A stretch of 32,000 bases of DNA from Candidatus Altimarinota bacterium (GTDB lineage Bacteria > Patescibacteriota > Gracilibacteria > UBA1369). Of this stretch, positions 8,713 through 30,593 are shown piece after piece. The position numbers and the translations under genes are program-made. The stretch is from contig JBAZYK010000002.1 of NCBI GenBank assembly GCA_041659405.1, positions 60,001-92,000 of the forward strand, in the 5' to 3' direction. Every line of letters starts with the position of its first letter. Within the stretch, counting starts at the first letter, position 1. Below the pieces are notes generated by a model, which saw nothing but the letters and a program-made list of their open reading frames with translations, ran no database searches and was not told the DNA's origin.

Positions 8713-8788
8713 TGGTGGACGCTGTAGGGCTCGAACCTACGACCCTCTCGGTGTAAACGAGATGCTCTACCAGCTGAGCTAAGCGTCC
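8713..8788 (-). tRNA. tRNA-Val (anticodon TAC), CCA encoded
   Basis: The reverse complement GGACGCTTAGCTCAGCTGGTAGAGCATCTCGTTTACACCGAGAGGGTCGTAGGTTCGAGCCCTACAGCGTCCACCA folds as a cloverleaf: 7-bp acceptor, GCTC/GAGC D stem, anticodon loop TTTACAC, and GTAGG/CCTAC T stem with a TTCGAGC loop. Confidence 0.93.
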
Positions 8789-8896
8789 ATATGAAACAGC
8801 GAGAGAAAAGTTATCACAGGGCTCTATCTATTTCAAGTTAATTTTCATTATTAAGACCGATTTAAAGACTTATTTTGTTAATTTCAGGCCATCCCG

Positions 8897-10159
8897 CTAT
8901 TTCTGGAAAATCGTCAACATAGTAAGTGTTAAAGCCATTCCAACGATAAAAACAATCGAAAGAACAGAAATCACATTCAGCCAAGGACCATTTTTATATT
9001 TTCCCATTAAATTTTCCTTATTTAGAAGGATCAAAATTGCCACAAACAAAATTGGCAACACGAACGTATTCAACATCTGCGACCCTACCAAGATTGGAAT
9101 CAAGGGCAAACCCGGAATAAGAATCACCGCCGCAGTCGAAAATATACTAAAAGTCAAAAGCTTATAAAACGAAGGAGATTCTTTTTTTAGATCCACACGC
9201 CCCTCCCAACCAAAAGCTTCTGTCACAATATACGAAGAAGTCATGGAAACCACCGCCAAACCAAGCAGAGAAGCATTTAAAAGGCCCCAGGCGAAAAGAT
9301 GTTTGGCAAAAGCTCCAGCCAGTGGTTCCAACGCAAGAGCAGCCTGTCCGGCATCCTGAATAACAATTCCATTTTTATAAAGAGTTGCCGCAGTCGCTAT
9401 CACAATGAAGAAAGCGACAAAATTCGTCCAAAAACTGCCAACAAACACATCCGCACGGGCATATTTAAGATGCTCGGCAGCCAAACCCTTATCCACGAAA
9501 TATGACTGTACAAAAAACTGTCCCCAAGCCGTAATTGTAGTACCAATCAACGCCACGGCCGTATAAAAGAAGGTAGGGGTCAATTCAATCGTTGGGATAA
9601 AAGTCCCCTTCAAAACCGCGGACCAATCCGGATGAGCCATAAAGCCAGCCAGGACATAAGAGAAAAACAACAAAGAAGATGTCAAAAATATTTTTTGAAC
9701 AATCTTAAAAGAACCTTTATAAACGATCCACCAAATCAGCAAACTGGCCAACGGAATCGCAATATATCTTGGAACATGATAAACATCGGCAACACTTGAA
9801 ATACCTGCATATTCAGCCAAAATATTTGTCCAGTTGGCAATAAAGGTTATGGCCACAACAAAAGTCGTAATTTTTAATCTAAAATTCTCCCGAATCAAAG
9901 CCGCCAAACCACGGCCGGTAACCAAACCCAAGCGCGCGCCCATTTCTTGAGTAATCGCTAAAATAAAAGTAATCAACAGCAAAATCCAGAGCATTTTGTA
10001 CCCAAAAGATGCCCCAACAACCGAATAAGTTGTTATACCACCGGCATCATTATCGGCAGTCCCGGCAATAATCCCCGGCCCCAAAAGGCCTAAAATCATT
10101 ATGAGCTTAATTTTAAAAGGGGAAACCTTGTGTTTGATTTCATTTTCAAAGCTTTTCAT
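8897..10159 (-). CDS. NRAMP (SLC11) family permease with non-canonical metal-site residues (NRMT-like, possible Mg2+ transporter)
   Basis: 420 aa polytopic membrane protein. It aligns by eye to E. coli MntH. The TM1 region GTADNDAGGITTYSVVGASFGY corresponds to [21 protein letters not shown]. The TM6 region LIGTTITAWGQFF corresponds to LGATIMPHVIYLH. So DPGN becomes DAGG and the MPH Met/His are lost. Confidence 0.8.
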   Translation of the reverse strand: MKSFENEIKHKVSPFKIKLIMILGLLGPGIIAGTADNDAGGITTYSVVGASFGYKMLWILLLITFILAITQEMGARLGLVTGRGLAALIRENFRLKITTFVVAITFIANWTNILAEYAGISSVADVYHVPRYIAIPLASLLIWWIVYKGSFKIVQKIFLTSSLLFFSYVLAGFMAHPDWSAVLKGTFIPTIELTPTFFYTAVALIGTTITAWGQFFVQSYFVDKGLAAEHLKYARADVFVGSFWTNFVAFFIVIATAATLYKNGIVIQDAGQAALALEPLAGAFAKHLFAWGLLNASLLGLAVVSMTSSYIVTEAFGWEGRVDLKKESPSFYKLLTFSIFSTAAVILIPGLPLIPILVGSQMLNTFVLPILFVAILILLNKENLMGKYKNGPWLNVISVLSIVFIVGMALTLTMLTIFQK

Positions 10160-10170
10160 ATCGGAAAAAA

Positions 10171-11385
10171 TTAAGCATCAGGAACCAAAAGACGCATGAT
10201 ATCGTCCACGGTAATAATTCCTTTCAAATGTTTACGACGATCAACAACGCCCACAGAGAGCAAATTATATTTAGTCATAATTTTGGCAACTTCACGTGCA
10301 TGAGTTGAAATCTTCACGGTTTTAACCACCTTGGACATTAATTCACCGATTTTTTCGCTATGATCAGCCAAAAGCAAAGTCCTAATGGAAACAATTCCAA
10401 TTAAAGCATTATCTTTATTTACCACAAACGCGTGGTAAATCGAACGATGTTCATCGGATTTCTTCCTGATTTCCTTAATAGCTTCACGAACAGATTCATC
10501 TTCACCAATATGCAAATATTCAGTATTCATCAAACCTCCGGCACGATCTTCTTCATAAGTCGTAAGTTTATGTAAAGTTTTTGCCTTTCTAATTCCCAAG
10601 CGACGAAAAACCTGGATACGCTTATGCTCGGAAAGATCCTGAATAACATCAGCAGCTTCATCCGTTGGCATTTCCTCCAAAATCCCCGCCAAATATTTAG
10701 GGTTAATATGATCAATCAAAGTTTCTTTATATTCAGGTTCAACTTCACCCAAAACCTCAGCGGCTTTTTCTTTATCAAACGCCTGAACCAACTTGGTACT
10801 TTGATGTAATGTTAAGTTTTCAATCAAATTCGCAATATCCGCAGGATGCAATTTCTCCAACTTCTGATACGGAGTTTTTAGCTTAAGACTACCAATATTT
10901 CCCTTCACCAGATTCACATTATGCCAATCTATAAAACGTGATTGCATGGAACGAATAAAAGGTAAATGCGCCAATCCCAGGCGACGCATCAGCGCTTTAT
11001 TACTAACATCAATTCCCACAACCGAAAAATCATCCTCAATTTTTGAAAGTTGCAAATCATTAACGCGCACCACCCTGATTCCCTCCACATCAAAAATTTG
11101 CTGATCAAGAACATCACGAACCAACAAAACCTCATCATTGGAAAACTCATAATTAACTTTCCAGCAATTTGATCGATTGAGAGTTATTTCAGCACGACTC
11201 AAATTTTCTATACAAGTATAAGGAATAAAATTGACCTCTTTTCCTCTATAAAAAATCAAACCCTGAACTCGCGGATACTCTCCATTTTTTGTCTTTGCAT
11301 TAACAACAACATCTCCCAAACAACCAATAACATCTTCCCTGCTATCAATAATATCGGCCTTCACTAATTGGCTTAAAAAAATCAT
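10171..11385 (-). CDS. soluble MgtE-like protein: PRC-barrel-like N-terminus + MgtE_N domain + CBS pair, no transmembrane domain
   Basis: 404 aa. LHPADIANLIENL...EKAAEVLGEVEPE...ILEEMPTDEAADVIQDL matches the MgtE N-domain pattern. AGGLMNTEYLHIG...IYHAFVVNKDNALIGIVSIRTLLLAD...KYNLLSVGVVDRRKHLKGIITVDDI is a CBS pair as in MgtE. The protein ends right after the CBS pair. It lies 11 nt upstream of the NRAMP-like gene. Confidence 0.8.
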   Translation of the reverse strand: MIFLSQLVKADIIDSREDVIGCLGDVVVNAKTKNGEYPRVQGLIFYRGKEVNFIPYTCIENLSRAEITLNRSNCWKVNYEFSNDEVLLVRDVLDQQIFDVEGIRVVRVNDLQLSKIEDDFSVVGIDVSNKALMRRLGLAHLPFIRSMQSRFIDWHNVNLVKGNIGSLKLKTPYQKLEKLHPADIANLIENLTLHQSTKLVQAFDKEKAAEVLGEVEPEYKETLIDHINPKYLAGILEEMPTDEAADVIQDLSEHKRIQVFRRLGIRKAKTLHKLTTYEEDRAGGLMNTEYLHIGEDESVREAIKEIRKKSDEHRSIYHAFVVNKDNALIGIVSIRTLLLADHSEKIGELMSKVVKTVKISTHAREVAKIMTKYNLLSVGVVDRRKHLKGIITVDDIMRLLVPDA

Positions 11386-11412
11386 AAAAAACTCCTGAAA
11401 AATTTCACCGAA

Positions 11413-11441
11413 ATTATATACTGCATTTACAAAGCGAACAA
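11413..11441 (-). promoter_or_regulatory. candidate sigma70-type promoter for the MgtE-like/NRAMP-like pair
   Basis: Minus-sense TTGTTC (11441-11436), a 17-nt spacer, then TATAAT (11418-11413), about 28 nt upstream of the ATG at 11385. Motif evidence only. Confidence 0.4.
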
Positions 11442-11474
11442 CAAAAAAGAGATGGAAATTTTAATTCCACCTCT
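11441..11474 (-). terminator. Rho-independent terminator after the Lys/Ala-rich protein gene
   Basis: Minus-sense agaggtggaa-ttaaaat-ttccatctct forms a 10-bp stem with one G.U pair, followed by TTTTTTGTTGTT. Confidence 0.7.
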
Positions 11475-11506
11475 TTTAAATTTGAAGATGAACCGAATTC
11501 CAAAAT

Positions 11507-12322
11507 TTATTTTGTGTCAGAAGTCTTATTTTCTTCCTTCAATACTTTCTTTGCTTCTTTCTGGGCTTTCTTTTGATCTTTTTCTAACTGAGCCTGAGCC
11601 TTTAAAGTAACTTTCAAAGCATTCAAAGCATCCTTTTTAACTTTCTCAGCAGCTGAAACAGCAGCGTTAAACGTCTTTCTTGCTGCTTCTCTAGCTGTTT
11701 GTAAAACTGCACGAGCTGCACTTACTCCACCTTTGTAAGTCTTACGAGCGGCATTCATAGCGTCATTATAAGTTTTCCTGGCAGCCTGATTCTTAGCTTT
11801 ATCAGTAGTTGCTGAACAAACAGTAGCCTTCAAAGTATTCAAAGCCTTTTGCATAACAGCCTTACGAGTTGCAACCAAAGCATCAACCTGTGTTTTAAAC
11901 ACTGCAAAAGCAGCATCTACAACCTTCTTATGATCTGCAATCGCAGCCTTCATACTTGCACGGAAAGTCTCAAGTATCTGTTGAACCTTAGAATCCTTTA
12001 CAACTTTCACATCACGTTCCGCACGTTTATTTGCCATATTACCATCATATTCAGAACGATTTTTGGAAGATTTAACATTATTTTCCGCATTCTTATTTTC
12101 AGATTTCACCTGTGAATCGATAGCATCTTTTGTCGATTTTTGCTGTTTTTCTTCAAAATTGACCACATTACAAAGCTTATTCACCTTATCGGATAAAGAA
12201 ACACTCTGAGTAGACTCATCCTTCGATTTTACCTGATCCGAAGTCCCTTCCATCGCAAAAGAAGGAGCCGCAAAGCTTAAAACGGTCATACCAACCAAAA
12301 GTGCCGAGGTTACCTTTTTCAT
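11507..12322 (-). CDS. secreted Lys/Ala-rich alpha-helical repeat protein (hypothetical)
   Basis: 271 aa. It has a signal-peptide-like N-terminus (MKKVTSALLVGMTVLSFAAPSFA). The C-terminal half is low-complexity K/A/Q-rich, with a recurring AARKTY/AARKTF/AARAVL motif. No family was recognised. Confidence 0.6.
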   Translation of the reverse strand: MKKVTSALLVGMTVLSFAAPSFAMEGTSDQVKSKDESTQSVSLSDKVNKLCNVVNFEEKQQKSTKDAIDSQVKSENKNAENNVKSSKNRSEYDGNMANKRAERDVKVVKDSKVQQILETFRASMKAAIADHKKVVDAAFAVFKTQVDALVATRKAVMQKALNTLKATVCSATTDKAKNQAARKTYNDAMNAARKTYKGGVSAARAVLQTAREAARKTFNAAVSAAEKVKKDALNALKVTLKAQAQLEKDQKKAQKEAKKVLKEENKTSDTK

Positions 12323-12482
12323 AGAAAAAAGTTATGAAATAAAATTCTTTTGTTACCTGCATATTCTAACGTAGATCACAGAAAATACTTACAACCTAAA
12401 ATCCTTTCCCCTTGTGCAATCCAAAATTCATTTTCTAAAAAATATCTATTTTTAGCCAGATCAAGATTTTAGCCACGTCAAA

Positions 12483-12612
12483 TATAAAAAAACATGAGCG
12501 AAAAATTCGAAGCAAAGCGTGGATTTTTGAGGATTGGGTCTCGTGGGCCCCAACCGCAGAAAATCCCGCTACTGCGCAGAATTTTGAACGAATAACAATA
12601 TAGGGGAAAAAG
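12483..12612 (+). repeat. copy B of the duplicated intergenic element carrying a 33-codon ORF
   Basis: See copy A. ORF 12494-12595 = MSEKFEAKRGFLRIGSRGPQPQKIPLLRRILNE. It is followed by an AT-rich hairpin plus T-run (ttgtttcacaaacaa gttttt) and a GC hairpin (gcccgc-ttgagg-gcgggc) before tRNA-Leu. Confidence 0.85.
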
Positions 12613-20748: not shown

Positions 20749-21570
20749 ATGAACGATCAAAGCGTAAAACAAAGCCAATCCAAGAAAAATCCCAGTTCCA
20801 GTACTCAAATATATTTGAGAATTTCCGAAATCAGGGATAACACACTCGTGCTTAAAAACGGAGGCCTTCGTTCAGTTTTAAGAGTTTCCAGTATCAACTT
20901 CAACCTAAAATCGGAAGAAGAACAAAACGCGATTATCTATTCTTATCAATCATTTCTAAACACGCTTGAATTTCCTATTCAGATCGTAATCAGGTCAAAA
21001 AAACTCGATATTGATGAATATTTGGACAAACTCAAAAAAATCGGTGAAAAACAAACCAATCCGCTACTTCAAACTCAAACTTACGAATATATCGAATATA
21101 TCGCCAAGTTAGTGGAATATGCCGATATCATGGAAAAAGACTTTTTGGTTGTTGTTCCTGTAGATCCTTTCCGAGCACAAAAACCAAATATAGTACAAAA
21201 ATTCCTCCAAAACCTAAATGCCAAGGACTCATATGACTCGGTCAAACGTCGCCACCTGGAATTTGAAGAATTACGCAAAACACTCACTCAACGCTCCAGT
21301 TCAGTTAAAATTGGTTTGGAAAATTGTGGATTAAAAGCCGATGAGCTAACAACAAAAGAGCTTATCGAACTTTTCTACAACATCTACAATCCTTCAGTTG
21401 CCCGTTTTGAAAAAGTAAAAAATCCGGGCGAAACAACTATTCAATCCGACGAAGAAAAATCGACAGAATTTGTCGAAGTAAGCGAAGAAGCTAAGGAAAC
21501 ACCAAAGGAACTTCCAAAAGAAACGACAGAACAAGGAACTATTAAAAACCATTTAATTCGAGCAGAATGA
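20749..21570 (+). CDS. VirB4/PrgJ-type N-terminal domain protein, lacking any ATPase domain (truncated or split)
   Basis: 273 aa. ISEIRDNTLVLKNGGLRSVLRVSSINFNLKSEEEQNAIIYSYQSFLNTLEFPIQIVIRS resembles, from memory, the N-terminal region of Gram-positive-type VirB4 conjugation ATPases. It sits where prgJ/virB4 follows prgI. No Walker A motif is present. It ends in an acidic low-complexity tail. Confidence 0.5.
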   Translation: MNDQSVKQSQSKKNPSSSTQIYLRISEIRDNTLVLKNGGLRSVLRVSSINFNLKSEEEQNAIIYSYQSFLNTLEFPIQIVIRSKKLDIDEYLDKLKKIGEKQTNPLLQTQTYEYIEYIAKLVEYADIMEKDFLVVVPVDPFRAQKPNIVQKFLQNLNAKDSYDSVKRRHLEFEELRKTLTQRSSSVKIGLENCGLKADELTTKELIELFYNIYNPSVARFEKVKNPGETTIQSDEEKSTEFVEVSEEAKETPKELPKETTEQGTIKNHLIRAE

Positions 21571-21771
21571 GTAATTAAAAACTCATTAATGCAAGCGATA
21601 CAAGGAAACAAAAAAAATTACAACCGAGCTAATCGATTTAAGTAATTAAAAACTCATTTGAACAAGCAGTACTAGGAAGCAAATGAATTCCGACCGAGCA
21701 GTATTTTTATACTGAGAGGAAGGAATTTCATGTAGCTGACGACGTAATGCGCCGTTCAAATGAGTTTTTAA
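21541..21771. repeat. cluster of a ~25-nt motif (3 direct + 1 inverted copy) including a degenerate 72-nt tandem duplication and a perfect 18-bp long-range inverted repeat
   Basis: Motif attaaaaac[ct]cattt... occurs at 21541-21565, 21574-21597 and 21645-21669. Tandem units are 21571-21642 and 21643-~21714. ttaaaaactcatttgaac (21646-21663) is perfectly complementary to gttcaaatgagtttttaa (21754-21771). Confidence 0.8.
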
Positions 21772-21780
21772 AAAGCACTG

Positions 21781-21897
21781 TCTTGGCAGCGCCCTACTTT
21801 CCCCTTACTGATAGTATGAGTATCATCGGCGAAGAGTGGCTTAACTTCTGTGTTCGGGATGGGAACAGGTGTACCCCACTCTCTAGAGCTACCAAGA
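21781..21897 (-). rRNA. rrf: 5S ribosomal RNA
   Basis: The reverse complement contains CCTGTTCCCATCCCGAACACAGAAGTTAAGCC...GCCGATGATACT...AGTAGGGCGCTGCCAAG. The helix I arms are cttggtag/ctgccaag. Flanking complementary extensions reach 21775 and 21903. Confidence 0.88.
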
Positions 21898-22127
21898 CAG
21901 TGCCTTCTAAAATATAAATTTTAAAGTAACACCGTCTTTTAAATTGGGCCTGAAAACATTTAATTCTGTTGTTTCGTTTCTTCTTATATCCAGATTTCGC
22001 TGGACGTTTGCCTGAATCTTCACTCAGCGCTAGTTAAAAGAAGCCATCGTGTGCCAGTACTCAATCCCGCCAAGGCGGGACTAAGTACTGACACAATGTA
22101 CTTTTTACGGCCGTGCCGTAAAGATAA

Positions 22128-25200
<3,073 letters not shown>

Positions 25201-25306
25201 TTTACCCTTTTAACTAGCTGTGAGCAAAGACTCAAAGCTAATTAAGATCGAAACTAACATTTATTATTATATTTAATTTACAGAATTTTAATGTTCTACT
25301 GCCCAA

Positions 25307-25319
25307 TTGTTAAAGATCA
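25307..25319 (-). promoter_or_regulatory. boxA-like antitermination element upstream of 23S
   Basis: Minus-sense TGATCTTTAACAA versus E. coli rrn boxA TGCTCTTTAACAA (12/13, consensus recalled from memory). Confidence 0.5.
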
Positions 25320-25358
25320 CTATCTGGACCGGGAATAATTCCCAATCCTTTCCTTCAT

Positions 25359-25387
25359 AAAAAAAGGAGTGTGCCTACGCACACCCC
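25359..25387 (-). terminator. Rho-independent terminator-like hairpin between the 81-aa gene and 23S
   Basis: Minus-sense ggggtgtgc-gtag-gcacactcc forms a 9-bp stem with one mismatch, followed by TTTTTTTAT. Confidence 0.55.
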
Positions 25388-25544
25388 TCAACCTAAAGTA
25401 AGCCGTCTTTCGCTTACCTCTTTAAGTTAAGGGGTATGTGTATGAATTGTTGCATTCAGGGGATACTTTTTAACTGCTTTTCAAAAATAAAGCCATTTGA
25501 TTATAGGCAACGAGTTACCCAAAGTCAAGGATTTATTTGCGAAT

Positions 25545-25790
25545 TTATGAAATACCAAAGAATGGGCCAAGCAAGCCATGAAAAAGGTCCTGGAATGTTC
25601 CCAAAGCGAACATTAATGACAAAAAAGAAATGACAATTCCCAGTATAATAAAAAAAGTATAAGTCCCGCCTGAACCAAGATATTGTTCCGCAAACGCAAT
25701 GTTTCCGAAAAACTGCTTAATCTGATAACGATAAATCATTAACAAAAAGCCACCTGGAATACCTATAATAGCAACTAAGAATCTAGACAT
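25545..25790 (-). CDS. small two-TM membrane protein (hypothetical)
   Basis: 81 aa with two clear hydrophobic helices (FLVAIIGIPGGFLLMIY and TYTFFIILGIVISFLSLMFALG). It is followed by the terminator-like hairpin. No family was recognised. Confidence 0.5.
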   Translation of the reverse strand: MSRFLVAIIGIPGGFLLMIYRYQIKQFFGNIAFAEQYLGSGGTYTFFIILGIVISFLSLMFALGTFQDLFHGLLGPFFGIS

Positions 25791-26197
25791 GTTTATTATT
25801 TAGATCACCCAATGATAGCATTTTTTCAAGATAAATTCAACATTGATAAGGTGATTTTTCTTTACTGTAAGCTAACATAGACCACCCTGTCCGACTTTCA
25901 ATTAAGGCATTCTCTGTAAATTTAAACTTCTAACGGTCAGTTCCAATTCTTTGATATTGGGATTTCTTGAAAATTCCTGGGATTTTTCATATGAATCCAA
26001 GAACTTTATCAAATTTTTTAATACCTGGTAAGAACGTGAAGTGGTTTTCATTTGGAATTTGTTAAGATTTAAGTTCGTTCTGAGTATAGGTGAGTATACA
26101 CTCACCTGTCAAACTAATTTTTTATAATTTGGCAAAAAAGCAAAAGAAAGCCATAATCTTTACAATTACGGATTAAGAATTATTAATTATAAATTTT

Positions 26198-27334
26198 TTG
26201 TTAAAAGCTAAAGCTGACAAACCCGAAGACCTTTCCCTATATATACACATTCCGTTTTGCAAAACGATCTGTCTTTACTGCAATTTTTTGACGTTTGCCC
26301 ACAAAAACAAATGGATCCCGGATTACGTTGAAGCGGTTTGCAAAGAAATCGCATCATCTTCAAAAAAACATAATCAGCGCATAATTAAAAGCATTTACTT
26401 TGGCGGAGGAACGCCCAGTTTAATCGAAAGCAAGTACATCCACAAAATTCTTCAAACCATCTCAAAACATTTTAAACTTCAACCAAGCCTGGAAATCAGT
26501 ATTGAATGTAATCCGGAAAGCGTGAATGTGGATAAGTTGAAAGATTACGTCAAAATGGGCATCAACCGGTTTTCTTTGGGAATTCAAAGTTTTAACCAGG
26601 AAACCTTACGTAGAATTGCCCGCCCCCATAATCGCGAAACAATTTTCAAGGCACTCGAAGCCATTAAAGAAGCAAAAATCAAAAACTTTGGAGCAGACTT
26701 TATAATGGGACTACCCGATCAAACTCTTACTTCATTTAAAAAAGAGGTTTCAACTATCCTCAAATATAAGCCCACTCACCTCTCTTACTATTTTTTGTCG
26801 TATGATACCAAAAAAATCGACCTGTTTATCAAAGACTGCCCAAACGATGAAGAGCAAATCAAATACTATGAATACCTGACTCGCACACTCAAAAGAAAAG
26901 GATTCAAACATTATGAAGTCTCCAATTATGCCTTGCCCGGATTTGAGTGTCTTCATAACCAAAGATATTGGCAACAAAAGGATTACCTTGGCCTTGGCTT
27001 GGGCGCACACTCTATTGTGGATGGACAAATGTGGGAAAATCAAAAAAACTTTGAAGCTTATTTGCAAAATCCCGCCAAAATTGAAAATGAAATGGAGATT
27101 GATTCCGATCTTAAGCGCATGGAATACATTATGTTAAGCCTGCGAACAATTGAAGGTCTTGATCTTGCACACTATGAACAAGAATTTGGCCACAAACAAG
27201 ATAACGTGCAAAAACTTCTGCTCAACGCCGATGAATACATCAAATCAAAACACTTAAAAAAAGATCATAACAGCTTAAAAGCCACCGAAAAAGGTTTTTT
27301 GATTCTGGAGAAGATTACCCACGATTTAATTTAG
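26198..27334 (+). CDS. hemW: radical SAM HemW/HemN-like protein (heme chaperone / coproporphyrinogen-III oxidase-like)
   Basis: 378 aa with a TTG start. It has the radical-SAM cluster motif YIHIPFCKTICLYCNF, then GGGTPS and NRFSLGIQSF, with a HemN_C-like C-terminus. It is on the strand opposite to the rRNA genes. Confidence 0.8.
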   Translation: MLKAKADKPEDLSLYIHIPFCKTICLYCNFLTFAHKNKWIPDYVEAVCKEIASSSKKHNQRIIKSIYFGGGTPSLIESKYIHKILQTISKHFKLQPSLEISIECNPESVNVDKLKDYVKMGINRFSLGIQSFNQETLRRIARPHNRETIFKALEAIKEAKIKNFGADFIMGLPDQTLTSFKKEVSTILKYKPTHLSYYFLSYDTKKIDLFIKDCPNDEEQIKYYEYLTRTLKRKGFKHYEVSNYALPGFECLHNQRYWQQKDYLGLGLGAHSIVDGQMWENQKNFEAYLQNPAKIENEMEIDSDLKRMEYIMLSLRTIEGLDLAHYEQEFGHKQDNVQKLLLNADEYIKSKHLKKDHNSLKATEKGFLILEKITHDLI

Positions 27335-28171
27335 ACGTTTATTTAAACGCTCCGATTTCTCTTTCAAAAATTTAACCATTTCCAAAGCCACATCCTGTTT
27401 TAGTACTTGATGAGCCCGCACAAAGTTGCATGGAAAATTGACCTCTGCCACATAGAACTTTCCATCACTTTCTAAAACATCAACTCCACCAAACTCCAAA
27501 TCCAAAAGATGCGTAGCCTTTATAGCCAACTCTTCCATCTTTTTAGGATATTTTTTGGCCTTAATGCGCGGAGATGTGGATTCATTGGTACGAAAATCCT
27601 TATTAATTTTAAGATATTCCAGGCTCGCGATAACTTTATCCCCCAAAACAATGAACCTGGCTGAAGCTTTTGTAGGGATAAACTGCCTCAAAACAAGCAA
27701 CTTATTCTGAAATAAAAGAAAATCGACAATTCCATATAAAGAGGAAAACGACCCCACTTTCATCACGCCCATTCCCCTGCTTCCACCCAAAGCTTTAATC
27801 ACAATCGGAAAACCTCCCAAAGCCTTTACATATTTTTGAAGTTTAGCGCGATCTTTAGTCACGCAAAAAATAGTCTTTGGAGAAAGATCGTTATCTTTAA
27901 GCAAAATAAAAGGATCCTTAAATCGAAGCAAAGGATCTTGATTAAAGGTTACCACTCCGGGCTGAAGTATATAACTCTCAAAAGTCTGCAAAATTTTGCC
28001 TCTGCTAACACGATAAACCAAATCCCCTTTCTTTACAGGCGACGGTTTGGAAAAATCAAAACTCAAAGGATCAAGAGCCTTAAAGGCTACCTTTAATTTT
28101 TGACAAGCCTTCTCCAGCAACCGAACACGGTCCGGATCAACGCCTGGCAAATGAAGAACATAAAAAACCAT
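27326..28171 (-). CDS. ATP-grasp fold ligase (RimK-related)
   Basis: 281 aa. GGFPIVIKALGGSRGMGVMKV (glycine-rich ATP loop) and FGGVDVLESDGKFYVAEVNFPCNF (the ATP-grasp C-terminal E-x-N motif). Its 3' end overlaps hemW convergently by 9 nt. Confidence 0.6.
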   Translation of the reverse strand: MVFYVLHLPGVDPDRVRLLEKACQKLKVAFKALDPLSFDFSKPSPVKKGDLVYRVSRGKILQTFESYILQPGVVTFNQDPLLRFKDPFILLKDNDLSPKTIFCVTKDRAKLQKYVKALGGFPIVIKALGGSRGMGVMKVGSFSSLYGIVDFLLFQNKLLVLRQFIPTKASARFIVLGDKVIASLEYLKINKDFRTNESTSPRIKAKKYPKKMEELAIKATHLLDLEFGGVDVLESDGKFYVAEVNFPCNFVRAHQVLKQDVALEMVKFLKEKSERLNKRLN

Positions 28172-28185
28172 CTGGATTGAATAAA

Positions 28186-28262
28186 TGGTGGGCGGGAGAG
28201 GACTTGAACCTCTGACCTCGTCATTATCAGTGACGCGCTCTAACCAACTGAGCTACTCGCCC
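28186..28262 (-). tRNA. tRNA-Ile (anticodon GAT), CCA encoded
   Basis: The reverse complement is GGGCGAGTAGCTCAGTTGGTTAGAGCGCGTCACTGATAATGACGAGGTCAGAGGTTCAAGTCCTCTCCCGCCCACCA, with anticodon loop CTGATAA. Confidence 0.93.
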
Positions 28263-28300
28263 AAAAGATGTGAGAAAATCGTTTCCGGTACATTAAACCT

Positions 28301-28377
28301 TGGTGGAGCCTAAGGGAGTCGAACCCTTGACCTCCTCGGTGCAAACGAGGCGCTCTGGCCAGCTGAGCTAAGGCCCC
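28301..28377 (-). tRNA. tRNA-Ala (anticodon TGC), CCA encoded
   Basis: The reverse complement is GGGGCCTTAGCTCAGCTGGCCAGAGCGCCTCGTTTGCACCGAGGAGGTCAAGGGTTCGACTCCCTTAGGCTCCACCA. The anticodon loop is TTTGCAC and the G3:U70 Ala identity pair is present. Confidence 0.93.
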
Positions 28378-28531
28378 ACATTGTGGTTCATCTTTTCAAA
28401 ACGCGAACATTATAAAGAAGTCGCCCAAATTTGCAAATCAATTTAATTTAAATTGTACTAAACTGGAACAAAACCATTCAAAAATCAATACAGAAGAATA
28501 AAACAAACCGTATTTAAATGCATCTTAAAAG

Positions 28532-28560
28532 CAAAAAAGAGCCCCGCCGAAGCAGGACTC
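28532..28560 (-). terminator. strong Rho-independent terminator after the zinc-ribbon gene, upstream of tRNA-Ala
   Basis: Minus-sense gagtcctgc-UUCG-gcggggctc forms a 9-bp stem (2 G.U pairs) with a UUCG tetraloop, followed by TTTTTTGC. Confidence 0.75.
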
Positions 28561-28585
28561 TTTTTCTAATATCAAATTGATTCAA

Positions 28586-28861
28586 TTACGCCATTCTTCT
28601 TTTGCCGCCTTTAGCGTCAAAACAAGCGCGACATAAAACTGGACGGTCACCCTTTGGAACAAAAGGAACCTCAGTCTCAACTCCGCATTCGGAGCAGTTT
28701 ACCTTAGTGAAAGAAAGCTTTCTGTTATCTTTCTTTTCTCTGCGGCAATTGCCACAACGTTTTGGATCTTGGAAACCTTTTTCAGCAAAGAACTGTTGTT
28801 CTTCAGCTGTAAATTCAAAAGGTTGACCACAATCCTGACAAGTTAATGTTTTACTTTCCAT
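28586..28861 (-). CDS. double CxxC zinc-ribbon protein (zf-trcl-like, hypothetical)
   Basis: 91 aa. It has two zinc knuckle pairs: CQDCG...x17...CGNCR and CSECG...x17...CRACF. The pattern C.dCg..F.F.a.EQ.F...KGF..P.RC..CR matches the probable zinc-binding domain family, as recalled from memory. The C-terminus is basic. Confidence 0.7.
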   Translation of the reverse strand: MESKTLTCQDCGQPFEFTAEEQQFFAEKGFQDPKRCGNCRREKKDNRKLSFTKVNCSECGVETEVPFVPKGDRPVLCRACFDAKGGKRRMA

Positions 28862-29092
28862 GTGAACGATGTATAAAAAATAAAGTTTCTCCCTTAAACC
28901 TGGAAACCTCGGGAGATGTTGTTACTCGACCTTTATAGAAACGTCCCGATGTGATTCCCCTGAAAAAAAGAGTTTTTCTTGGTATGTTTAATACCCAGAA
29001 TGTAATAGAGAAGTAGCATGCACCTCGCTTGCGCGAGGCTCGACCTAGAAGGTTCCTATGAATAAATTCATAAGTCTTCTAATATCTCCTAG

Positions 29093-30593
<1,501 letters not shown>

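Follow-up and report, generated by a model that had tools for sequence, protein, structure and literature searches.

A pore-less MgtE-type protein paired with an NRMT permease in a CPR bacterium may act as a Mg2+-sensing brake

The window analyzed in this study is a 32,000-nucleotide stretch of contig JBAZYK010000002.1, and its minus strand carries an operon of two genes. Based on open reading frame (ORF) calls, the downstream gene (positions 8897–10159) encodes a permease of 420 amino acids, and the upstream gene (10171–11385) encodes a soluble MgtE-type protein of 404 amino acids, here called the partner. The permease belongs by sequence to the NRAMP-related Mg2+ transporters (NRMTs), which constitute the fourth known route of bacterial Mg2+ uptake. 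We read the locus as an nrmT operon from a bacterium of the Candidate Phyla Radiation (CPR) that resembles Peribacteria/Peregrinibacteria, and the partner as a Mg2+-sensing brake on the NRMT. We give this joint reading a probability of about 0.55. It is favored because the pairing is near-obligate, translationally coupled, and specific for permeases with the NRMT signature, and because the ligands that clamp the N domain of MgtE to its CBS pair have been selectively retained. Two further reasons are that a variant of the partner in Eggerthellaceae appears to be tethered to the membrane, and that an uncoupled Mg2+ carrier would be expected to need a brake.

The stop codon of the partner gene (TAA) and the ATG of the permease gene are separated by only 11 nucleotides, with a tRNA-Val gene following downstream on the same strand. 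An earlier, sequence-only reading of this DNA had described the same arrangement, and its coordinates are confirmed.

The permease matches the Pfam Nramp profile (PF01566) across profile positions 1–356 of 357, with a score of 291 bits and an E value of 1.6e-86, which corresponds to the LeuT-type fold. Its best match in the PDB is 7qia, the structure of EleNRMT (E = 3.6e-91, residues 7–414); the best MntH structure gives an E value of 1.4e-20, and the score of the permease against the NCBIfam model for MntH (126 bits) is below the cut-off of 430. In a HMMER alignment, D38-A-G-G41 of helix 1 stands at the position of D-P-G-N in DraNramp and of DAGG in EleNRMT. Likewise, T207-T-I-T210-A-W212 of helix 6 stands at the position of A-T-V-M-P-H in DraNramp and of TTIAPW in EleNRMT. 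The substitutions of DAGG for DPGN and of TTITAW for AxxMPH, which the sequence-only reading had pointed out, are therefore exact, and equivalents of the canonical Asn and Met are absent. Residue W212 takes the place of the first histidine of helix 6b, and alignments differ on whether V217 or Q218 stands at the position of the second. The other mapped site residues are Q361 in helix 10 and E116 in helix 3. Both DAGG and TTxTxWGQFF are invariant among 117 close homologs of the permease.

These residues can be compared with published data on EleNRMT, taken here from sections of the report by Ramanadane et al. (2022, PMC8806188). The NRMTs form a branch of the SLC11/NRAMP family in which a widened site lets Mg2+ in, and that report defines the clade by the signature DxxG-TxxA/T. 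Residues D38, G41, T207, and T210 of our permease fit this signature. In EleNRMT, Thr224 is required for the interaction with Mg2+ and is less important for Mn2+, and both Asp55 and Gln379 are required for transport; the equivalents in the permease are T207, D38, and Q361, respectively. The same work reports that EleNRMT transports Mg2+ and Mn2+, does not transport Ca2+, and operates without H+ coupling. Judged by its sequence, the permease clearly falls within the NRMT clade of the SLC11/NRAMP family, the clade that the sequence-only reading had mentioned, and Mg2+ may be its physiological substrate.

The partner contains an MgtE_N domain at residues 179–280 (Pfam, E = 1.4e-24) and a CBS pair (E = 6.5e-21), and it matches the cytosolic domain of Thermus thermophilus MgtE (TtMgtE, 2yvy) with an E value of 1.2e-34. 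It has no PF01769 membrane domain, no hydrophobic segment, and no plug helix, and it ends four residues past the CBS pair. With neither PF01769 nor a hydrophobic segment, the protein therefore forms no MgtE channel. An AlphaFold2 model based on a 64-sequence alignment (mean predicted local distance difference test score, 86.2) places beta-rich subdomains at residues ~1–70 and ~85–160, a disordered linker at 162–173, a helical MgtE_N domain, and the CBS pair in succession. The C-terminal part of this model superposes in Foldseek on Mg2+-bound 2yvy with a template-modeling score of 0.83 and a root-mean-square deviation of 2.2 Å across 229 columns.

On the minus strand of the window, the N-terminal beta-rich module, which comprises two PRC-barrel-like subdomains according to the model's secondary structure and PF05239 (residues 1–160), is encoded at 10906–11385. 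The MgtE_N helical domain (residues 173–280, with D242 and D246) is encoded at 10546–10869 and the CBS pair (residues 282–400, with D395) at 10186–10542, as delimited by Pfam and by the 2yvy alignment. The PRC match of the partner itself, at residues 86–136, is weak (20.8 bits, below the cut-off of 21.2), and PF05239 matches 57 of the 64 members of the partner family, with a best E value of 4.9e-12; the PRC-barrel-like N terminus proposed from the sequence is upheld on this basis. A search with the N-terminal 165 residues of the partner returned 1227 cluster representatives; 150 of them were listed, and almost every one carries the module at its N terminus or close to it. Among the matches listed, the main protein lengths are ~400 and ~600–650 amino acids, and there are many shorter ones as well. 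From sequence and predicted structure, the partner is the soluble, complete cytoplasmic part of a PRC-barrel-type MgtE minus the pore. This agrees with the earlier description of a complete MgtE cytoplasmic module without a channel, now borne out by Pfam, the 2yvy match, the model, and Foldseek.

The Mg2+ ligands of TtMgtE were mapped via a HMMER alignment onto the 64-sequence alignment of the partner family. The Mg4 ligands D91 and D247 correspond to D242 and D395 of the partner, where Asp is found in 63 and 64 of the 64 sequences, and the Mg6 ligand D95 corresponds to D246 (Asp in 63/64). In a wider set of partner homologs, all three positions are Asp in 140 of 144 proteins. In MgtE, the N/CBS module closes the channel once Mg2+ is bound, and mutation of the Mg4/Mg6 ligand residues of TtMgtE abolishes this Mg2+-dependent closure.

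A survey of gene-pair conservation in relatives had been set as a test beforehand by the sequence-only reading, and the pairing proved to be widespread. From the NRMT alignment, 66 genome loci were collected, of which four are cut at a contig end and were excluded. A full-length partner (residues 1–404) is adjacent to the NRMT gene and on the same strand in 58 of the 62 informative loci. It lies upstream in all paired genome loci except three from Rickettsiales, where it lies downstream. The paired loci come from Patescibacteria/CPR groups, Margulisbacteria/Saganbacteria, Omnitrophota, Rickettsiales, and proteobacterial metagenome-assembled genomes (MAGs), and the pair is also present in Dormibacteria and Eggerthellaceae. 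The reciprocal survey started from the partner alignment and covered 80 metagenome loci, three of them uninformative. An NRMT gene is located directly downstream of the partner gene in 69 of the remaining 77. The other loci comprise one true long MgtE channel and seven orphans, with neighbors that have nothing in common.

The spacing between the two genes is short, with a median gap of 4 nucleotides, gaps of 25 nucleotides or fewer in 43 of 48 pairs, and overlapping reading frames in 11 pairs; the partner gene is translationally coupled to that of the permease. The site of partner-linked permeases is of the NRMT type (D..G paired with T..T, T..A, or T..S) in every readable case but one (D..A), and an N/M site occurs in none of the readable ones. 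Pairwise distances of partner and permease correlate with r = 0.86, a result that shows that the two are inherited as a unit and not that they are in contact. Purifying selection is strong on both genes: in comparison with the closest relative, the ratio of nonsynonymous to synonymous substitution rates (dN/dS) reaches only 0.05 in the partner gene and 0.03 in the permease gene, although dS is saturated.

The architecture of the partner, a PRC-type MgtE lacking its membrane domain, might be expected of a functionless relic of an MgtE gene, in decay after the loss of its pore. However, residues 1–404 are conserved at full length across many phyla, in over 120 loci, the dN/dS value is low, and the ligand residues are essentially invariant. 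The conservation data effectively refute this explanation, and we regard it as exceedingly improbable.

In Eggerthellaceae, presumed here to include the source organism of EleNRMT, a PRC-MgtE_N-CBS gene is located directly upstream in close relatives of EleNRMT. The partners from Adlercreutzia/Raoultibacter (locus L073, 2615–3982; locus L075, 2645–3997) are 450–455 amino acids long, and shortly after the CBS pair they finish with one predicted transmembrane helix (residues 416–450). This predicted helix would place the sensor module at the membrane.

If the partner is a Mg2+-sensing brake, its mode of action might be as follows. The protein would sit against the NRMT from the cytoplasmic side, probably as a dimer formed through its CBS pair, and would bind Mg2+ at the retained sites of the interface between the N domain and the CBS pair (D242, D395, and D246). 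At adequate cytoplasmic Mg2+ levels, the partner would close and restrain the transporter. The result would be negative feedback on an uncoupled, potential-driven uptake process, as MgtE exerts on itself in cis. Three elements of this scheme are ones that we infer, namely that the two proteins touch, that the ligand sensed is Mg2+, and that the control is inhibitory.

The idea that the partner regulates the transporter has a history. NrmT was discovered through M-box riboswitches by Shin et al. (2014, PMC4072509), and the sections of that paper used here already report an MgtE-like fragment encoded adjacent to nrmT. The authors speculated that this fragment might provide cytoplasmic feedback regulation of NrmT, and they also suggested a chaperone role. 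The pairing is therefore not uncharacterized, as the sequence-only reading had supposed, because both the adjacency and the feedback idea were already in print. Regulation in trans has been a published speculation since 2014, and we found no demonstration of it in the literature searched, nor any later paper on the NrmT-associated partner. In the portion of the EleNRMT paper available to us (Ramanadane et al. 2022, PMC8806188), we found no discussion of the partner. The portion of Shin et al. (2014, PMC4072509) considered here contains no mention that we could find of a PRC-barrel module, and a search of the literature for PRC-barrel in combination with Nramp gave nothing relevant.

A number of observations weigh against a Mg2+-sensing brake, and several of them speak for one of its rivals. 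The first group concerns the sensor itself, since only part of the metal-binding apparatus of TtMgtE is preserved. The Mg5 ligands D226 and D250 are replaced by N374 and R398 in the partner and are not conserved, the Mg7 ligand E59 corresponds to E210, which is variable in the family, and the Mg2 and Mg3 sites are absent, gone with the plug helix. Most residues that bind ATP in TtMgtE are replaced as well. The adenine-stacking F227 is L375 in the partner and Leu in 64/64 family members, N203 has become S or K, and D188 has become T or R; among Y170, R187, D188, N203, and F227, only R187 is kept (as R335). ATP sensing by the partner in the manner of TtMgtE was considered and rejected, as the binding motif is not conserved.

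A second group concerns the genomic association. Four NRMT loci have no partner nearby (L028, L038, L055, and L068), two of them with unrelated neighbors, and about one in ten partner homologs (~10%) is an orphan that has unrelated neighbors and no Nramp gene in the vicinity. Such orphans, which have no transporter neighbor in common, would be expected if the partner makes no contact with the NRMT at all and is instead a free cytoplasmic sensor of Mg2+ or nucleotides with another target (e.g., MgtA or some process in the cytoplasm), its adjacency to the permease gene reflecting co-expression only. We consider this very unlikely. The association holds at ~90% in both directions, spans many phyla with near-zero gaps, and is specific to NRMT-signature permeases. 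Moreover, Eggerthellaceae have a membrane-anchored variant, and MgtA is no conserved neighbor of the pair.

The orphan loci are L098, L107, L113, L124, L140, L147, and L157, together with L078; seven of the eight stem from the survey of metagenome loci and one from a direct look-up. Those seven, as well as some paired members (L088 and L134), share a basic C-terminal tail of the form W-K/R-K/R-x-L-P-R-L-F/Y, which the partner in the window lacks.

Natural fusions of the two proteins likewise fail to help. A search with the concatenated pair recovered two proteins that hold both halves, P0242 (967 amino acids) and P0263 (638 amino acids). The former (locus L077, 1601–4504) joins PRC-MgtE_N-CBS to a permease resembling EleNRMT through ~150 residues that include hydrophobic segments. 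This protein occurs a single time, on a 5.6-kb metagenome contig with an adjoining transposase gene, and it is either genuine or an assembly artefact. Proteins P0334, P0336, and P0337 have Arg/Gly/Pro-rich tails typical of frameshifts. Since each of these fusions was found just once and several show clear signs of frameshifts, they were rejected as firm evidence.

The remaining points come from genetic experiments reported in the parts of Shin et al. (2014, PMC4072509) consulted for this work. The Clostridium acetobutylicum transporters gave Mg rescue without the partner, and CabNRMT complemented alone. The term "two-component" uptake system, which the sequence-only reading had chosen, is not supported as it stands, because the partner is dispensable for transport. 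In addition, co-expression of the partner from A. capsulatum with its NrmT did not improve Mg rescue. This negative result would weigh little on an inhibitory model, because the assay sought improved growth at low Mg2+, an effect that an inhibitor would not be expected to produce.

Another possibility is that the partner binds the NRMT but plays a positive or structural role, whether by activating it at low Mg2+, by passing on or accepting the ion as a metal chaperone, or by aiding assembly or stability. Close translational coupling and co-inheritance would suit any stoichiometric subunit, a chaperone role was suggested in 2014 as noted above, and EleNRMT alone was unstable in detergent and required consensus mutagenesis (Ramanadane et al. 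2022, PMC8806188). Nevertheless, co-expression gave no better rescue, NRMTs transport on their own, and the homologous module of MgtE closes its channel when Mg2+ is bound. We therefore judge a positive or structural role to be unlikely.

The same report (Shin et al. 2014, PMC4072509) describes an NrmT from A. capsulatum that lacks a riboswitch, fully rescues a Mn-transport mutant, and rescues Mg uptake poorly, and is mainly a Mn2+ transporter. It also describes an M-box upstream of many nrmT members, although this element is not obligatory. In the region 5200–12500 of the window, which includes the sequences upstream of both the operon and mgtA, a search for M-box (RF00380-type) and other cis-regulatory RNAs gave no hit at the gathering threshold and none when matches with E ≤ 5 were admitted. 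The operon in the window thus differs in this respect from many of the nrmT operons of Shin et al.

These points raise the possibility that the pair serves mainly in the uptake of Mn2+ or another transition metal, and that the partner senses Mn2+ or some other ligand. The riboswitch-less NrmT from A. capsulatum also has an adjacent partner, and EleNRMT carries Mn2+ besides Mg2+. However, our permease has the full NRMT signature, including T207, whose equivalent in EleNRMT is needed for Mg2+ and less so for Mn2+, and it has no soft Met ligand. The ligands kept by the partner are pairs of hard-oxygen Asp residues that bind Mg2+ in MgtE, and an MgtA-type pump adjoins the operon in this lineage. 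On balance, a role mainly in Mn2+ uptake seems somewhat unlikely, and a Mg2+-sensing brake remains our preferred interpretation.

The MgtA-type gene just mentioned (5891–8461, plus strand) encodes a Mg2+-translocating P-type ATPase that scores 718.1 bits against TIGR01524, for which the equivalog cut-off is 610.75. It is convergent to the operon, with the tRNA-Val gene in between. The sequence-only reading had regarded the neighborhood as a magnesium-homeostasis cluster. The identity of the pump stands, but its synteny with the operon is seen only in L001/L007, L008, L009, L012, and L014, which amount to five distinct loci among 77 and all belong to Peribacteria, Peregrinibacteria, or close Gracilibacteria. 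In the remaining loci that were fetched, including L002–L004 from Gracilibacteria, the MgtA neighbor is absent. MgtA as a part of the system was therefore rejected, as its synteny is restricted to close relatives; the juxtaposition is lineage-specific and not a conserved part of the system. The flanking loci and proteins find their best matches in MAGs of Candidatus Peribacteria and Peregrinibacteria (86–88% identity, L001/L007).

Several elements delimit the operon. A candidate promoter on the minus strand (11413–11441) reads TTGTTC-17 nt-TATAAT, and a Shine-Dalgarno sequence, AGGAG, is found at 11392–11396, six bases before the ATG of the partner gene. This candidate site, which the sequence-only reading had listed, has a perfect -10 hexamer, but it went unlisted by a consensus promoter scan because its -35 hexamer matches at only three of six positions. 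A terminator-like hairpin with a T-run at 11445–11477 (minus strand) ends the upstream gene and therefore marks the 5′ boundary of the operon. That gene is an ORF of 271 amino acids directly upstream (11507–12322, minus strand). Its product has a signal-peptide-like N terminus, the remainder being of low complexity and rich in Lys, Ala, and Gln, and it has no meaningful match in Pfam. On the other side, the tRNA-Val (TAC) gene (8713–8788, minus strand) begins 108 nucleotides 3′ of the permease stop codon; it marks the 3′ boundary of the operon and may be co-transcribed with it. A terminator-like hairpin lies 3′ of this tRNA gene (8683–8699).

A direct repeat of 122 nucleotides, with copies at 8511–8632 and 12487–12608 that are 94% identical, flanks the tRNA-Val gene, the NRMT operon, and the 271-amino-acid ORF. 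Each copy is located ~80–140 nucleotides 3′ of a minus-strand tRNA gene (tRNA-Val and tRNA-Leu) and has a T-run at its end. The repeat has no match in Rfam and no significant fold (z = -0.78), and it was not seen in the 77 loci compared.

Farther along in the window, the rRNA genes at 21781–30593 do not form one compact operon, as the 16S, tRNA-Ala, and tRNA-Ile genes lie ~3 kb from the 23S and 5S genes. The 16S (29093–30593) and 23S (22131–25197) genes were located by model matches. The gap between them contains a gene for a RimK-like ATP-grasp protein (27326–28171, minus strand) and one for a radical-SAM HemN-like protein (26198–27334, plus strand). The 23S match measures 3067 nucleotides versus 2925 positions for the model, and the gene may contain an insertion. 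Between the end of the ORF at 20749–21570 and the 5S rRNA gene there are two copies of a 43-nucleotide repeat (21570–21612 and 21641–21683), which are 81% identical and 71 nucleotides apart.

The question of what the partner does has consequences beyond this locus. EleNRMT is not proton-coupled, and an unregulated NRMT could overload the cell with Mg2+ if no brake restrained it. If that brake is supplied by the partner, one and the same type of Mg2+-sensing module would control a channel in cis and an unrelated carrier in trans. This could also explain how small-genome CPR bacteria without riboswitches keep their Mg2+ steady. More generally, the soluble PRC-MgtE_N-CBS protein might be viewed as a detachable, Mg2+-operated gate that docks onto an uncoupled carrier of the LeuT fold, with the cis sensor of a channel re-used in trans, tethered in Eggerthellaceae and free in CPR bacteria. 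We offer this broader formulation tentatively, at slightly less than even odds. The window contributes a compact, riboswitch-free CPR operon as a further example of a known pairing, and dozens of others are equally suited to the question of the partner's function. What is new are the numbers on co-occurrence of NRMT and partner, ~90% in both directions, together with three details that we did not find in the literature searched, namely the PRC-barrel head in common with long MgtE channels, the selective retention of the Mg4/Mg6 ligands, and the membrane-anchored variant of the partner beside relatives of EleNRMT.

Comparisons with known systems place both proteins in context. The nrmT operons described by Shin et al. 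(Ca_c0685/Ca_c3329 of C. acetobutylicum and Acp2976-2977 of A. capsulatum) have the same order as the operon in the window, with a homolog of the MgtE cytoplasmic domain directly upstream of the permease. The partner associated with Ca_c0685 is split, whereas that of the window is a single gene. EleNRMT (PDB 7QIA/7QIC/7QJI/7QJJ) resembles our permease in the DAGG motif, the helix-6 Thr, the Trp in place of His, the helix-10 Gln, and the helix-3 Glu. However, it has Ala at the former Met position where the permease has T210, and Pro where the permease has Ala (TTIAPW compared to TTITAW); both motifs are within the published signature TxxA/T. Canonical NRAMP/MntH transporters (DraNramp, ScaDMT, and EcoDMT) have the LeuT-type Nramp fold and the helix-1 Asp in common with the permease. 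Their site reads DxxN/AxxM, in contrast to DxxG/TxxT in the permease, which also lacks the histidines of helix 6b.

Similarly, T. thermophilus MgtE (PDB 2YVX/2YVY/2ZY9) and the partner share the fold of MgtE_N and the CBS pair as well as the Mg4/Mg6 ligands, whereas the pore, the plug helix, and the Mg1, Mg2, and Mg3 sites of TtMgtE are all missing from the partner. The partners of Eggerthellaceae carry a C-terminal transmembrane helix that the partner in the window lacks. Finally, long MgtE channels of 600–650 amino acids (P0341–P0360, e.g., P0351 with 647 amino acids; locus L132) combine PRC, MgtE_N, and CBS domains with PF01769, and they begin with the same N-terminal MIFLS... PRC-like module as the partner. 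Their sequences suggest that the partner was derived from a PRC-headed MgtE channel by loss of the pore, or that the reverse occurred.

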